From Patescibacteria group bacterium (lineage in GTDB: Bacteria; Patescibacteriota; Minisyncoccia; JACQLN01): DNA of 64,000 bases. The notes beneath the pieces were generated by a model. The model ran no database searches and was not told where the DNA came from. It saw nothing but the letters and a program-made list of their open reading frames with translations. The stretch is taken from assembly GCA_038065095.1 (NCBI GenBank), contig JBBTRR010000006.1, positions 20,713-84,712 of the forward strand, read 5' to 3'. Shown in pieces: positions 13,708 through 53,009 of this stretch; position 1 is the stretch's first letter; each line of letters starts with the position of its first letter. Made by a program: the position numbers and the translations under genes.

Positions 13708-15285
13708 ATGTTAAGCCAACAAGCAGTAGAAAAAATACTTGGAATTGAAAATGCCACACTATTAGACCCTAAAGATATGGCAAAAAAGTTGGTTATTACT
13801 TTTTATCCCCATGAAAAACATAAAGTAAGCGAAAATATACTTAGTTTTGCGAATAAATTTAAAGAGGCTCTCAAAAATATAGGGGTTACAATAATACCTT
13901 ACGAAGAATCGTTAGTTGAAGTACCTATAAAAAGAAAGCTAAAAATATTATTTTATTCAATAATAGGAAAGATTCCAAAAGGTCTCAAGAAGGGGAAAAA
14001 AATTAAAAGAGGTGTATCAGTTATAACCTTAGGAGAGGGTATCACCGGAGATTTAGCTATGGATAATACACTCGGATTCGCACAAAACAGCGTAATCACA
14101 ATCTTAGATATGCCAGAGGGGATAGGCCACGATACAGAGTTCCATGAACACTTTAATACGGCTATGAATTTATTTGCATACCATATGACAAATATAGCTA
14201 TTGTTATAGATAAGGAAAAATGGATACCTTATAACTTTAATGCCTCTCATCCAATTTATTTAATAGATGAAAATTTAGAAAAAAATATATTAAAAGGCGT
14301 TATACCAAAAATCGCAGCTCCGATAAAGCCTCCTAAACTAAGTGAATTTAAAATTCTTAAGGAAAAATTTGACCCATTTGATAAAGAGCACAAACACATA
14401 ACAGACGACTTTACTGAAAGCGGTTCCATGTTAGAAAAAACAAATTTATATCCCCCTGGTAAATTATTAGACTCACTACCATTTAGAAATGATTTCTATA
14501 AATGGATAGGTAAAATTCATTTAGACCATAGAAACGGAATGAGTTATGGGTTTTTAGCAAGACAACTGCCTACAAAGTTAGGTAGCGTTTATGACAGTAT
14601 AAGTTTTAAAAATAAATTTTCTAAAAACATAGAAAATTTTAATGATTTTTTTAGTCATGATAACGAAAATTATATAATTATTGATACAGCTAAAGGTAAA
14701 ATATGTATACAAATAACCCCAATTTGGGTGCTGGCACAGAAATCAGGTTCAAAAAAAACAAACATAAATCCTGAAAGAGATTTGATTAAAATAGGGTTGG
14801 TTGAGGGAAAAATGCTGATCCAAATACCAAAAAGACTCAAGATTACCCCAGATTACAAGCCTTCTTTTGATACAAAAGTAATATTGGCCCACGCAATAGG
14901 TAATGCAATTATAGCTTCCTTGATAAGACATTTTGATCCAAACTCAAAATTTGTAGATAACGTAGAAGAAAGAGGATTGGCTATAGCTCACTGGCATGGA
15001 TATATAAATCCAGAAATGATACCTGACGGCTGGAGTGTATATGGTGAAAATAATGTCCCTGTTTCTTGTTCAACTCCTCAATCTGCTATATTCGCACTAT
15101 CTGGTAAATTAAATAAGTTTTTAGAGATTTTCAATAACAATAAAAAATATCGGGGAGATATTCATATAGAACCTCATCACGGAAACAATATATGTTTTGA
15201 TTCCTTAAAAGAACTTGGTCAGTTTTTAAGCAAAGAAAATACTTCTAGATTAGGAAATCATTTTTTAAATTTTTATAAACAATAA
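13708..15285 (+). CDS. large hypothetical protein (no recognisable domain)
   Basis: 525-aa ORF with its own terminator upstream. The histidine kinase starts 15 nt after its stop. Confidence 0.5.
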   Translation: MLSQQAVEKILGIENATLLDPKDMAKKLVITFYPHEKHKVSENILSFANKFKEALKNIGVTIIPYEESLVEVPIKRKLKILFYSIIGKIPKGLKKGKKIKRGVSVITLGEGITGDLAMDNTLGFAQNSVITILDMPEGIGHDTEFHEHFNTAMNLFAYHMTNIAIVIDKEKWIPYNFNASHPIYLIDENLEKNILKGVIPKIAAPIKPPKLSEFKILKEKFDPFDKEHKHITDDFTESGSMLEKTNLYPPGKLLDSLPFRNDFYKWIGKIHLDHRNGMSYGFLARQLPTKLGSVYDSISFKNKFSKNIENFNDFFSHDNENYIIIDTAKGKICIQITPIWVLAQKSGSKKTNINPERDLIKIGLVEGKMLIQIPKRLKITPDYKPSFDTKVILAHAIGNAIIASLIRHFDPNSKFVDNVEERGLAIAHWHGYINPEMIPDGWSVYGENNVPVSCSTPQSAIFALSGKLNKFLEIFNNNKKYRGDIHIEPHHGNNICFDSLKELGQFLSKENTSRLGNHFLNFYKQ

Positions 15286-21410: not shown

Positions 21411-22034
21411 ATGACTAATAACCAAAAACTACAAACTACAAACATGGATCCCGTTAGAAGCCACCCTGCCAAAGGCACGGCTACGACCACCTTGGGACGA
21501 TCTGCTTCTAACGGGATGGAACAGATTCTGGAAAGCTTGCTTTTTACTTATGGTGAATCTATAAGCTTAAAAAAACTAGCCGAAGTTACAAAAACATCGC
21601 CTAACAATATTCTTTTGGCTTTAGAAAATTTAAAAGCTAATTTAAAAAATAGGGGAATAAAACTTATAAATAAAGATAATTACTGGCAAATGGTTTCTAC
21701 TAAGGAATCATCAGAATTTATAGAAAAACTTGTCAAAAGCGAGATACAGGAAGAGTTAACTGCGGCTAGTTTAGAAGTCTTGGCTGTAGTAGCTTATCGT
21801 GGACCAGCCTCTAAAAGCGAAATAGAGATGCTACGTGGTGTAAATTCAGGCTATGCCTTACGCAATCTAACCCTTAGAGGGCTTATAAATAAAAACGAAG
21901 TTACAAAACCTCAAACTTATCAAATATCTTTGGGTGCTTTAAAAAAATTAGGTTTAAATACAGAGCATGAATTACCAAAATATAACGAACTAAAAACAGA
22001 ATTACTTAGAACAGAAAAATTGCTTCAAAACTAA
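21411..22034 (+). CDS. scpB: segregation and condensation protein B
   Basis: LESLLFTYGESISLKKLAEV and winged-helix repeats. Directly follows scpA. Confidence 0.8.
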   Translation: MTNNQKLQTTNMDPVRSHPAKGTATTTLGRSASNGMEQILESLLFTYGESISLKKLAEVTKTSPNNILLALENLKANLKNRGIKLINKDNYWQMVSTKESSEFIEKLVKSEIQEELTAASLEVLAVVAYRGPASKSEIEMLRGVNSGYALRNLTLRGLINKNEVTKPQTYQISLGALKKLGLNTEHELPKYNELKTELLRTEKLLQN

Positions 22035-42454: not shown

Positions 42455-42745
42455 TTATTCGAGCACAGCGAGAATATCTTCTTCTCGTGCTATTAAATAA
42501 GTCTTACCGTCAACCTTTATTTCTTGTGGACCATATTTTGTAAATAAAACCACATCACCTTTTTTAACTGTCATCTTTACAATTTCTCCATCGTCTATTT
42601 TTCCTGGGCCAACTTCCAAAATTTTGCCTTGTTCTGGTCGTTCTTTATCTATAGTATCGGGTAGATAAATTCCCGATTTTGTTTTTTCTTCTTTGGACAT
42701 AGGCTCTATCAAAACCCTGTCGGCTAATGGTTTAATCTTCATCAT
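42455..42745 (-). CDS. groES: co-chaperonin GroES
   Basis: IKPLADRVLIE...ILAVLE. 96 aa. Confidence 0.95.
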   Translation of the reverse strand: MMKIKPLADRVLIEPMSKEEKTKSGIYLPDTIDKERPEQGKILEVGPGKIDDGEIVKMTVKKGDVVLFTKYGPQEIKVDGKTYLIAREEDILAVLE

Positions 42746-42939
42746 GATATGTTTAGAATTTAGAAAGTAGATTTTTAGAGTGTAGATTTAAAACCACTTT
42801 CTACCTTCTACATTCTACTGTCTAATATTGTTTTTATCACTCTTCTATTACGATTGATAATGTAACAAATGTTAAAACTGGAGTCAAGCCAGATTGGTTT
42901 TATATAGAGTAACCCTTCGACTCGAAGACTCGCTCAGGA

Positions 42940-42970
42940 TATTTGTTCAACACTTAGTGTTGAACAAATA
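42940..42970. promoter_or_regulatory. perfect 14-bp-arm palindrome about 195 nt upstream of groES
   Basis: tatttgttcaacac-tta-gtgttgaacaaata. Confidence 0.45.
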
Positions 42971-43001
42971 AAAAGTCGCTCCGATAATACATCGGAGCGA
43001 C
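42971..43001 (-). terminator. intrinsic terminator (minus sense) ending the structured GC-rich block
   Basis: Minus sense reads gtcgctccgat-gtatt-atcggagcgac then TTTTTATTTG. Confidence 0.7.
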
Positions 43002-43590
43002 TGGTGCGAAAGACTTCCCTCTGCACGTGACCATATCAACCATCTTTCCCTAGAAAGGAGGTTTATACGGCACTCGTAGAAGTCTCTCGACTTTATACTA
43101 CTGGGAAGATCATGAGGAATACTCACGTTCACCTGTCGAAGGTTCATGAGTAGTTCAGAGACCTTCCCAGCAAAATAATAAAGAACTGAATCCTCTGCTT
43201 AAAAAACAAAGGATTAATTTCGGGCTGGATGCCTAACGGTCGCACCCAGCCTTTCAGCCAAACAGGTATCAGACCACATCCAACTCACGAGGCATCGTGG
43301 GGAGGTAGAGTATTTCAGTCAGACTAGTCCGACGTAGGTCCTGTTTAGCTTACAATGGCGAGGTTCTAGGGAGGGTAGTCCCCCGCCAAAAACCAAACCA
43401 ATATACCATATTTATAGAACACTCTCATTATACATATATACAAAAAGGTGTCAACCCCGTTAGAGACAGAGGGTCGCTACGAGCCCTCGCGGTCTCTAAC
43501 GGGGTCAAGCCCATCTTAAGAACTAATTCCCAGAAGGACTGCCCTTCATAGGAAGGGCAGTCCTTCTGGTTGGGTTCCTACTACCTATGG
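43002..43590 (-). ncRNA. candidate large structured non-coding RNA (identity unknown) or non-coding foreign remnant
   Basis: About 50% GC against an AT-rich background. No ORF of 60 aa or more on the plus strand. Perfect 18-bp hairpin (43530-43569), 14-bp stem with nested hairpin (43454-43505), further helices. Bounded by terminators on the minus strand. Confidence 0.4.
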
Positions 43591-43625
43591 AATTAAAAAT
43601 CCGCTCCGACTTTTTGTCGGAGCGG
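43591..43625 (-). terminator. intrinsic terminator (minus sense) for the upstream GT-B-like gene
   Basis: Minus sense reads ccgctccgac-aaaaa-gtcggagcgg then ATTTTTAATT. Shares the cgctccga core with the 42971 terminator. Confidence 0.7.
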
Positions 43626-43631
43626 AAATAC

Positions 43632-44729
43632 TCACATTACCTTTTCCAAAAACTCAATAATCTTTCTTTCCGTATGCCAATCATCTGGCAGAGGAAAAGC
43701 TTTCTCCTGCTGGCGACAGCACCTATCTTGACCTGCCGAAGTTAATAGGAATTGGATAGCATCAGCTAGTTGATCACGACTACTGGCTTTGACAGCCCCA
43801 CCAAGTTCAGCAACAAACCAAGTTTCACCACCTGTTTGAATCTTCACACGAGCCCGAACACCTTCGTCGTTAAGGTAAATACCCGGCACACGGGCATAAG
43901 CACCAGCAATGGAAATATTCGTACCACTGGCGTAAATCATTACATCAGCCGAGCCCGCAATCCGCGCACCTTTCCAAATCTTTGTATCGTTTGTATTAGC
44001 AACCCAGATATCTTCCAATATTTTAGAACGTTCAACGAAGAGTTGAGTGAAACGCTCTTCATCACCGGGTTTATTGGGATCAGGCCTTTCGCCGGGGTGT
44101 TTGCCGACCACTAGCACGATACCCCTTGCATCCATACCAGCGAGAGCTTCCTTGACCACTTTGATGATGCGGTTGTTTTCCTCGGGCTCTTTGCCTAAAA
44201 TCAAGCCGACAGACCGGTCATTCTTGCTCAAACCGATTTCTGTGCTGACTCCAGAGATCTCCACTAATTTCTTCCGCCGTGGCCAGTTTTCGGCCTTGGC
44301 TTGCATCAGCGACTCATATTCTAACCTCCATTGCGGTGGTGGACCAAGATACACAGTCCCATCATATCCAAATTCTTTTGCGGCTTCAGATCCAGAAGGA
44401 TGAGCTAGAAAAACCAACTTGGCCCGATAAGCCCAATAATCCTTGGCCTTGGGTCGGAGACAAGCGCCGGGTACATCTTCAAACACAAACCATGGTGTTT
44501 GAAATTTGAGACAAAAATCCGCAAACTCCAACTCCTGTTCCGTTTCAAAACTGGAAAGGCCAGTAACCATAGCATCCAAATCTATTAGTTCTTGTCCTCT
44601 CTCTTTGGCCAAACCACGAACCTGTTTGGGGAATAGGGTCACTTCGTGACCCCTAGTTTCAGCCTCTTTGGCAAGCAACGCCATAGCATCGCCTCCAGCA
44701 TTATCAAAGCAGAAAAATCCGATCTTCAT
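43632..44729 (-). CDS. GT-B fold glycosyltransferase-like protein, anomalously GC-rich
   Basis: MKIGFFCFDNAGGDAMALLAKEAETRGHEV resembles the GT-B N-terminal glycine-rich loop. C-terminal ASGTN...RVPGIYL. R/G/A-rich composition unlike neighbours. Confidence 0.45.
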   Translation of the reverse strand: MKIGFFCFDNAGGDAMALLAKEAETRGHEVTLFPKQVRGLAKERGQELIDLDAMVTGLSSFETEQELEFADFCLKFQTPWFVFEDVPGACLRPKAKDYWAYRAKLVFLAHPSGSEAAKEFGYDGTVYLGPPPQWRLEYESLMQAKAENWPRRKKLVEISGVSTEIGLSKNDRSVGLILGKEPEENNRIIKVVKEALAGMDARGIVLVVGKHPGERPDPNKPGDEERFTQLFVERSKILEDIWVANTNDTKIWKGARIAGSADVMIYASGTNISIAGAYARVPGIYLNDEGVRARVKIQTGGETWFVAELGGAVKASSRDQLADAIQFLLTSAGQDRCCRQQEKAFPLPDDWHTERKIIEFLEKVM

Positions 44730-44904
44730 ATTGTGCCTCCATATAAGGGGTTTTTGGAAAATTAGTAAAAAAAGAACATGTAGAATATATCAGGTATTTA
44801 CCAATATTGTCAAACGTAACGATAAACCACGATCGTGTACTATTGTTACGTTTTATTTATTAACTTTTAATCAAGTCACCAAAGTTTAATTTTGATTTTG
44901 ATAA

Positions 44905-47847: not shown

Positions 47848-47930
47848 ATATAAACAGTGGATTATACACCAAATCAATGTGAAAATCCAGCCTTTGACAC
47901 GAACGCCTTAGGGTTTATAATGGAAGTATT

Positions 47931-50650: not shown

Positions 50651-50830
50651 TTAAATTGACTTATCTAATCAAAATTGCTAGCATTATTGTGTACTGAAAA
50701 AATCTCTTTTTACTTAATAGATACTCTATGTATGACCCTAAAAGGGTGAGGTTTTTAATTGTCCCATTTTAGAAACAGCCCGCTCTAGGTCATTTGGGCG
50801 CGCGAAGCGCGGGCGGGGTTTCTAACGGGA

Positions 50831-51049
50831 TTGCTTAATATGATAATAAACATAATACAAATAGTTTTAGCTGTCTTGTTGGTAATTACTGTGTTGCTAC
50901 AACAACAAGGTTCTGGTTTATCTGGCGCCTTTGGCGGTGAAGGAGAATTTCATCATACTAAAAGAGGTGCCGAAAAATATCTTTTCGTAGCTACGATTGT
51001 TTTGTCTGTTCTATTCTTTGGAACTGCCTTGGCTAATATAGTTTTCTAA
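50831..51049 (+). CDS. secG: preprotein translocase subunit SecG
   Basis: 72 aa. TM, LLQQQGSGLSGAFGG, second TM, as in SecG. Confidence 0.8.
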   Translation: MLNMIINIIQIVLAVLLVITVLLQQQGSGLSGAFGGEGEFHHTKRGAEKYLFVATIVLSVLFFGTALANIVF

Positions 51050-52830: not shown

Positions 52831-52915
52831 GGGGATGTGGTGAAATTGGCAGACACGCAGCGTTCAGGTCGCTGTGAGCGCAAGCTCTTGGGAGTTCAAA
52901 TCTCCCCATCCCCAC
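52831..52915 (+). tRNA. tRNA-Leu(CAG)
   Basis: ggggatg acceptor, D-arm GGTGAAATTGGCAG, anticodon loop TTCAGGT, long variable arm, T-arm GGGAGTTCAAATCTCCC. Confidence 0.85.
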
Positions 52916-53009
52916 CTTCAAAATAAAAAATTAAAGATTAAAAATTAAAGTTTTTTAATTTTGAATTTAAATTTTACATTTTGAATTTTAACTTTTAAAT
53001 TTATTAAAT

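Follow-up and report, generated by a model that had tools for sequence, protein, structure and literature searches.

Structured non-coding RNAs (ncRNAs) that are conserved and exceed ~250 nt are seldom found in bacteria, and the solved cases among the long ones have proved to be ribozymes, cores of ribonucleoproteins (RNPs) or unusual assemblies. OLE, ROOL and GOLLD measure roughly 600–800 nt (ROOL and GOLLD, ~580–800 nt), and the latter two often occur in a prophage context. The Patescibacteria are largely uncultivated and have ~1-Mb genomes with few regulators; our searches of the literature and Rfam found no non-housekeeping ncRNA described for them. Here we analyze a hairpin-dense non-coding block of ~650 nt upstream of groES in a 64,000-nt stretch of a Patescibacteria genome assembled from groundwater metagenomes (contig JBBTRR010000006.1, positions 20,713–84,712; hereafter, the window). 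We consider it likely that this block holds an independent gene for a structured ncRNA outside the Rfam families. Judged from sequence comparison, the RNA is a probable new family, with a long form of ~455 nt in the window and a core of ~270 nt.

On the minus strand, the block lies between a gene for a 365-amino-acid (365-aa) protein (44729–43632), itself downstream of uvrA (47877–44905), and the chaperone genes groES (42745–42455) and groEL (42363–40720). Its guanine-plus-cytosine (GC) content of 0.43–0.505 exceeds the 0.31–0.36 found on the groES side and in much of the window, and the 365-aa gene upstream is equally GC-rich (0.45–0.515). Folded as RNA, the whole block (43630–42965, minus strand) reaches −311 kcal/mol vs −195 ± 6.8 kcal/mol in dinucleotide shuffles (z = −17.1), in agreement with the dense secondary structure noticed in the original prediction, whose terminators, stems and rise in GC are all present on this strand. 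That prediction took the block for a single RNA of ~650 nt bounded by two related terminators. A structured minus-strand RNA does lie inside the block, but it is predicted to be ~455 nt long and to start at an internal promoter, and the first of the two terminators is that of the upstream protein gene.

To place these features in context, related loci (L numbers below) were gathered through proteins similar to that of the 365-aa gene, scans of metagenome and genome contigs, contigs encoding the exact proteins, and contigs encoding GroES homologs. Among 5.8 billion proteins, 32 were similar to the 365-aa protein, all from Patescibacteria, and many loci repeat the order uvrA, 365-aa gene, non-coding region, groES, groEL. 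An nhmmer search with the block matched L009, L016–L019 and L022 with E values of 1e-36 to 1e-78. Most of these matches span the region from the promoter to just past the terminator (query 182–736, equivalent to window 43459–42905), and a hidden Markov model (HMM) finds the RNA gene at 43425–42966. The 5′ ~170 nt of the block are a spacer that varies between relatives and lies outside the conserved RNA unit.

The promoter of the RNA gene matches the sigma-70 hexamers at 12 of 12 positions, as only one other site in the window does. The sequence TTGACAC...ATGTATAAT is identical in L009 and L016–L019, and a pattern search finds TTGACA-spacer-TATAAT also in L038, L039, L013, L007, L001 and L022; in the strain contig L032 the promoter only seems to be deleted, its place being taken by Ns introduced in scaffolding. 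A GUUC motif ~8 nt past the promoter is conserved in the relatives. We took the 5′ end of the RNA from the −10 hexamer and this motif, and the 3′ end from the U-tract of the terminator. On this basis, transcription would start ~7 nt past the promoter, near 43420, and the intrinsic terminator that ends at 42966 would halt it, for an RNA of ~455 nt. The terminator (helix 12 of the consensus structure) has five pairs with compensatory changes. The unit is single-copy in the window. The AT-rich inverted repeat directly past it is shared with the closest relative, L038, only.

For the RNA gene folded alone, the minus strand has a minimum free energy (MFE) of −192.9 (z = −10.7) and the plus strand one of −146.8 (z = −5.6). 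Because the plus strand folds much worse and many G-U pairs occur in the counts described below, the structure belongs to the minus-strand RNA. The RNA would fold into a P0 hairpin, a long-range P1 domain, P2 and P2b hairpins, a long P3 hairpin, a P4 domain and the terminator (Table 1). Eight long-form sequences were aligned with MAFFT, and RNAalifold gave a consensus of 95 pairs, 91 of which were counted after removal of four spurious outer pairs. In this set, 94.3% of cells are paired, and 34 of the 91 pairs have changed on both sides, vs 18.1 ± 2.6 in shuffles (none of 500 reaching the observed count) and 3–7 in slid controls.

At least four compensatory pairs are found in each of P2, P3, the inner part of P3, P4 and the terminator. 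P2 is paired in 100% of cells, with compensatory changes in 4 of its 10 pairs; the closing helix of P4 (helix 9) is 99% paired, with four such pairs. P1 encloses hairpins and a conserved CCUCCCCAC (43305–43297), and P4 encloses ACCUCCUUUCUAGGG and an invariant GUGCAGAGGGAAGU. P2b was misaligned by MAFFT and was therefore excluded from the pair counts; read by eye, its stem differs yet pairs in L018 (CUUCUAC/GUAGAAG) and L019 (UCUCUGC/GCAGAGA). The sequence GACTAGTC, remarked on earlier as a palindrome, is the tip of a conserved hairpin.

Table 1. Features of the block and its groES-proximal flank, with positions in the window
Feature	Position	Strand	Description
Intrinsic terminator of the 365-aa GT-B-fold gene	43626–43595 (stem 43626–43600)	−	TCCGCTCCGAC-loop-GTCGGAGCGGA, then TTTTT; not part of the RNA gene
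Perfect 18-bp hairpin	43569–43530	−	4-nt loop; species-specific spacer insertion
Inverted repeat with nested hairpin	43506–43453	−	GACCCCGTTAGAGAC...GTCTCTAACGGGGTT; 3′ arm extends into the −35 hexamer
Promoter of the RNA gene	43454–43427	−	TTGACA, 16-nt spacer, TATAAT; 12/12 sigma-70
Predicted structured ncRNA, long form, ~455 nt	43420–42966	−	nhmmer, HMM, covariation, fold
P0 hairpin	43357–43387	−	GGCGGGGGACUACCCUCCCUAGAACCUCGCC; helices 1 and 2 of the consensus; long form only
P1 domain	43257–43349	−	Long-range helix of GCUAAACAGG (43349–43340) with CCUGUUUGGC (43266–43257); helices 3 and 4
P2 hairpin	about 43251–43223	−	GGCUGGGUGC...GCAUCCAGCC; helix 5; followed by invariant CCGAAAUUAA
P2b hairpin	43190–43214	−	AUCCUUUG...CAGAGGAU; followed by invariant GUUCUUUAU linker (43186–43172)
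P3 long hairpin	43100–43171	−	GCUGGGAAGGUC...GAUCUUCCCAGU; inner helix around CCUUCGACAGGUGAACG; helices 7 and 8
P4 domain	43006–43091	−	Closing helix of GUCGAGAGACUU with AAGUCUUUCGC; long form only
Intrinsic terminator of the RNA gene	about 43002–42966	−	AGTCGCTCCGAT-loop-ATCGGAGCGACT, then TTTTTATTT; as RNA, GUCGCUCCGAU-loop-AUCGGAGCGAC, then UUUUUAUUU
Perfect AT-rich inverted repeat	42943–42967	−	TTGTTCAACACT-A-AGTGTTGAACAA; directly past the RNA terminator
groES promoter	42887–42859	−	TTGACT, 17-nt spacer, TACATT; sigma-70
CIRCE-like inverted repeat	42860–42834	−	TTATCAATC-N9-GAGTGATAA; overlaps the groES promoter

A short form of ~270 nt is found in more distant members of the clade, L001, L003, L004, L007, L013, L014 and L044, loci whose GroEL is 59–84%, mostly ~83%, identical. 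It follows the same −10 box (TGTATAAT) and 5′ GUUC motif and consists of a P1 domain containing UCCCCAC, a P2 whose loop is CU-rich, then P3 and a terminator. Across six short-form sequences, 96% of cells are paired and 16 of 73 pairs have changed on both sides, vs 8.7 ± 2.0 in shuffles. As with the long form, none of 500 shuffles reached this count; compensatory changes among relatives, by which the original prediction could be checked, are found in both forms. P3 is the element common to the two forms; its outer stem is kept in 13 sequences, with one pair changed from G-C to A-U in 6 of the 13. Reciprocal HMM matches on P3 link the two forms (short-form HMM at 43171–43103, E 1e-7), and a short-form covariance model (R1) matches the window at 43193–43059 (E 3e-9) and recovers the long forms. 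By these matches, the long and short forms are homologous. The RNA gene thus shows two of the features generally sought in an independent structured ncRNA gene, namely its own promoter and terminator on one strand and helices kept by compensatory substitutions.

The short-form covariance model gave no match in the most diverged loci, L015, L026 and L039, or in the Portnoybacteria loci. In L039–L043, uvrA and groES are separated by a 440-nt intergenic region and the 365-aa gene is missing. This region contains TTGACA-17-TATAAT, a hairpin-rich RNA of ~240 nt and a terminator, and the stem sequence of its hairpin GGCCAGAAAGG/CUUUCUGGCC is the same as that of P3 in L022. Because these loci keep the RNA unit without the gene, the RNA slot belongs to the position upstream of groES, and the 365-aa gene is a variable insertion beside it. 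In Portnoybacteria (GroES 75% identical), the region upstream of groES holds no such RNA, and a canonical controlling inverted repeat of chaperone expression (CIRCE) is present; as sampled, the RNA family is restricted to a clade of ultra-small Patescibacteria. Some Portnoybacteria contigs carry an rve-type transposase gene inserted upstream of groES (L046, 822–2120; L047, 45–1343), and other contigs with an identical GroES are without this insertion.

The RNA matches no catalogued family. A cmscan search of the window with Rfam 15 gave no match to the RNA at the gathering score, nor did all 4227 families at E ≤ 10 on the surrounding 1.1 kb (42700–43800) or at E ≤ 1 on ten relatives; the window and these relatives matched only tRNAs and, by chance, microRNA or small nucleolar RNA models. 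The OLE model was negative at each of these thresholds, no cmscan match was obtained with the ROOL and GOLLD models, and no Rfam riboswitch or leader matched 42700–43800 or the ten relatives. The part of the original prediction that saw here a large structured ncRNA of the OLE/GOLLD/ROOL type thus stands as regards a conserved, structured, non-coding and covarying RNA and falls as regards membership, since none of the three models matched at E ≤ 10. We found no description of this RNA in the literature and no link to OLE, ROOL or GOLLD.

The same searches bear on the idea of a highly diverged housekeeping RNA, that is, an RNase P RNA, transfer-messenger RNA (tmRNA), signal recognition particle (SRP) RNA or 6S RNA missed by standard models. 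A consensus-strength promoter and a compact genome would fit such an RNA, and minimal RNase P RNAs have a size range that takes in the ~270 nt of the short form. The absence of these signatures noted by eye in the original prediction is nevertheless echoed by Rfam 15 and ARAGORN: all 4227 families were negative even at E ≤ 10, and ARAGORN detected a tmRNA neither in the window nor in 11 related loci. There was no Rfam match to a one-piece or permuted tmRNA, and the RNA shows neither a tRNA-like domain nor a tag reading frame. A permuted tmRNA, considered on account of UUCGACAGG, was rejected, as ARAGORN was negative and the motif is unconserved; the UUCGAC string inside P3 is likewise not conserved in L018, L016 and L022. 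RNase P RNA was considered on account of the 5′ GUUCUU and of AGAGGGAAGUC, which presumably resembles conserved region I (CR-I, GAGGAAAGUCC) of that RNA, and was rejected for wrong position and context and the lack of a covariance model match: the only CR-I-like string lies near the 3′ end within a contiguous 13-bp local helix and is missing from the short forms, whereas CR-I to CR-V of RNase P RNA form its long-range P4 helix. SRP RNA, marked by its domain IV motif, and 6S RNA gave no cmscan match, and the consensus folds comprise at least three separate domains instead of the single rod with a large central bubble that 6S RNA forms. The absence of the RNA upstream of groES in Portnoybacteria fits a lineage-specific RNA, and we regard a disguised housekeeping RNA as very improbable.

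One or more small-protein genes hidden in the block would be another explanation, and short open reading frames (ORFs) are present, such as those of 66 aa (43147–42947) and 33 aa (43245–43144). Against this, no ORF is shared in position, frame or strand among 15 homologs, indel lengths in the alignment are not divisible by three, no stop-free frame of the block matches Pfam, and the 66-aa ORF crosses the terminator. The chance that the block encodes protein is as good as negligible.

The alternative offered in the original prediction, decayed foreign DNA acquired together with the adjacent GC-rich gene, calls for a closer look at that gene. The model of the 365-aa protein is confident (predicted local distance difference test score, pLDDT, 90), and its best PDB matches are UDP-GlcNAc 2-epimerases and GT-B glycosyltransferases, which by modeling makes it a two-Rossmann GT-B-fold protein nearest to the former. 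It has an invariant H211-P212-G213-E214 and belongs to no Pfam or NCBIfam family. Distant homologs adjoin genes for NeuB, a CMP-sugar synthetase and Wzy_C. The gene is preceded by its own promoter and Shine–Dalgarno (SD) sequence (44813–44730), a clear GGAGG, unlike most genes in the window. The protein is 45–50% identical in the closest organisms, where GroEL is 93–100% and UvrA 86–97% identical, and 59–64% identical in more distant ones, where GroEL is ~83% identical. This pattern suggests that, at a fixed locus, alleles were replaced or exchanged horizontally. By the same sequence comparisons, the RNA follows the relatedness of the organisms, as measured by GroEL and UvrA, and not the 365-aa gene.

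The foreign look of the neighboring gene (GC-rich, SD-led and incongruent with organism relatedness) favors DNA without RNA function, be it decayed foreign DNA or palindromic clutter akin to repetitive extragenic palindromic (REP) sequences or miniature inverted-repeat transposable elements (MITEs). So do the species-specific 18-bp perfect hairpin and the inverted repeat abutting the −35 hexamer, whose arm motif recurs in two other inverted repeats of the window. But both of these elements lie outside the conserved RNA unit, the helices of 43420–42966 keep pairing through compensatory changes, and the plus strand folds much worse. The unit and the 18-bp hairpin are each single-copy in the window, which disposes of a dispersed repeat. 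A blastn search of 42900–44800 against phage and plasmid collections returned no match. A 15-mer has 32 matches in viral contigs, but these are due to chance, as HMMs detect only the seed there, and a phage or plasmid origin was discarded. Decayed foreign DNA is rejected because the RNA unit is present without the GT-B-fold gene, as in L039–L043, and because the gene does not track organism relatedness; block and gene are thus uncoupled. We hold a DNA-level origin of the block to be scarcely tenable.

The main rival to an independent RNA gene is that the unit acts in cis, with transcription reading through the terminator into groESL. The strong promoter, a long structured leader and the terminator would form a conditional attenuator, dependent, for instance, on temperature or a factor, and read-through would add HrcA-independent transcription of groESL. 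The RNA unit always stands immediately upstream of groES and in the same orientation, even when its sequence has diverged strongly or when the GT-B-fold gene is absent, and the terminator of the short form lies only ~20 nt from the groES −35 hexamer. The groES side of the locus points the other way. A groES promoter and an overlapping CIRCE-like repeat are conserved past the RNA terminator in every syntenic relative. The repeat matches 15 of 18 positions of what we take to be the CIRCE consensus, TTAGCACTC-N9-GAGTGCTAA; the Portnoybacteria loci (L045) have a canonical CIRCE, TTAGCAGTC-N9-GAGTGCTAA, at the same place. The sequence thus marks groESL as a separate transcription unit, and with this promoter and operator standing past the RNA terminator, the RNA is unlikely to be a leader of groES; in a riboswitch or attenuating leader, the terminator would be the sole barrier between promoter and regulated gene and would compete with an antiterminator pairing. 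In addition, the distance from terminator to promoter varies from ~20 to 160 nt, the terminators are strong (11–13 bp, GC-rich, with U-tracts), no segment able to compete with the 5′ arm of the terminator was seen by eye, and no Rfam riboswitch or leader matches. A cis-acting groESL element is accordingly rated as improbable.

In the reading that we prefer, an independent RNA gene occupies a fixed slot directly upstream of groESL, co-oriented with it, and would give rise to a strongly transcribed, abundant and stable RNA that presumably acts in trans. Conserved unpaired segments, namely CCUCCCCAC, the CU-rich loops, UCCUCAU and ACCUCCUUUCUA in P4, are pyrimidine-rich, which suggests that the RNA may act through CCUCCCCAC, the loops and UCCUCAU by pairing with a purine-rich RNA or by binding a protein. 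A search for complementarity to the C-rich motifs yielded no convincing targets and was uninformative as a search.

Several points weigh against this reading. The contrast between observed and shuffled covariation is inflated, as the structures were derived from the same sequences, which include ~6 distinct long and 4–5 distinct short forms. Homology of the RNAs of L015, L026 and L039 rests on position and architecture. Constant placement beside groESL in the same orientation is equally expected of a cis-acting element. Unpaired bases comprise 515 C vs 194 G, an excess that is partly an artifact of MFE prediction. Finally, a plain anti-SD mechanism is doubtful because few genes of the host are SD-led and many appear to be leaderless.

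A bolder extension of the same reading is that the RNA belongs to a new class of large, ornate functional RNAs specific to this Patescibacteria clade, abundant and performing a sophisticated task, for instance as an RNP scaffold or as a self-assembling or catalytic RNA. We consider this unlikely, though not negligibly so. If true, the RNA could take the place of proteins that these minimal genomes lack, and its position beside groESL would point to a part in proteostasis or in the response to stress. Whatever its mode of action, one of the two best promoters in 64 kb, retention through strong divergence and a chaperone operon alongside make the RNA a testable candidate for new RNA biology.

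The translation signals of the window are as follows. GGAG occurs within 22 nt upstream of ~4 of 46 genes (ORFs of at least 150 aa), and many genes have a TATAAT-like box 6–14 nt before the ATG (for instance uvrA and the ORFs starting at 13708, 9563 and 40602), which suggests that initiation in this genome is mostly leaderless or SD-independent. The second 12/12 sigma-70 site (47894–47921, plus strand) is divergent from uvrA and has an ATG 9 nt past its −10 hexamer; the mRNA made from it is probably leaderless. The 5′ untranslated region (UTR) of groES (42753–42828, minus strand) forms a long hairpin that ends within a few bases of the start codon and lies behind a chance mir-1255 match. The groES 5′ UTRs of L014, L015, L018 and L026 form long hairpins of unrelated sequence, and the hairpin could be an RNA thermometer or an mRNA stabilizer. 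ARAGORN calls a tRNA-Leu(CAG) at 52831–52916 (plus strand) that the Rfam tRNA model does not report at its gathering score.

Three elements are found in the spacer that precedes the RNA promoter: the 365-aa gene's terminator, the 18-bp hairpin and, next to the −35 hexamer, the inverted repeat. A hairpin and T-run after the stop codon of the 365-aa gene are also present in L018, L016, L017, L019 and L022; short-form loci such as L013 lack this terminator, and the RNA promoter there directly adjoins the stop codon of the gene. Each arm of the 18-bp hairpin occurs once only in the window, and the hairpin is missing at the same position in L018, L016, L019, L022 and L038, the last despite a GroES 95% identical. 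The inverted repeat at the −35 hexamer persists in L018 and L022, where compensatory changes preserve its pairing, and has a variant form in L017. Its arm motif CCCGTTAGA also occurs in inverted repeats at 21446–21520 and ~50780–50832 (both plus strand), which are GC-rich with arms (T/C)CCCGTTAGA(A/G); the former falls within the 5′ part of ORF 21411–22034. These repeats may form a small family, either of palindromic elements or of sites bound by protein. The core CGCTCCGA is confined to the two terminators of the block (4 arm matches in 64 kb vs 0.44 expected). Within each long-form genome, the terminators on either side of the RNA unit are alike, and those of L022 (4070–4100 and 4769–4800) are nearly identical, loops included; this likeness hints at duplication or gene conversion.

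Compared with described systems, the locus shares with groESL operons controlled by HrcA and CIRCE a groES sigma-70 promoter that overlaps the inverted repeat TTATCAATC-N9-GAGTGATAA, and differs from them in the structured RNA gene directly upstream throughout the clade. We know of no structured RNA gene within CIRCE regulons. Like housekeeping RNAs, the RNA has a stable structure, is kept in a reduced genome and stands behind a strong promoter that looks constitutive; unlike them, it has no Rfam or ARAGORN match, and their defining motifs and overall shapes are absent.

The C-rich trans-acting small RNAs of Firmicutes of the RsaE/RoxS type are likewise stand-alone genes with a sigma-70 promoter and an intrinsic terminator, and they also have conserved unpaired C/U-rich motifs, comparable here to CCUCCCCAC, the UUUCCUUUCUCCUUU loop and UCCUCAU, and to the CUCCCUCC and UUCCCC loops in L039. 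In contrast, the present RNA is 3–4 times longer, far more structured and without sequence similarity to them, and its host has few SD-led genes for such motifs to act on; the C-rich seeds of RsaE/RoxS-like RNAs pair with G-rich ribosome-binding sites of their target mRNAs. The resemblance is, by analogy, one of possible mechanism and not of membership.

OLE, ROOL and GOLLD differ from this RNA in several respects. At 270–455 nt it is smaller and has no match to their Rfam models, and as sampled it is limited to one Patescibacteria clade at a fixed uvrA–groES locus. It is not accompanied by protein genes such as oapA, and searches of phage, plasmid and viral sequences revealed no phage association. 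Like these RNAs and the smaller raiA motif RNA, it is intergenic, GC-rich and densely structured in a genome that is AT-rich, with multiple covarying helices and conserved unpaired junction sequences. It is also, like them, an orphan RNA found through a long GC-rich intergenic region, so that this search heuristic works in Patescibacteria genomes as well.

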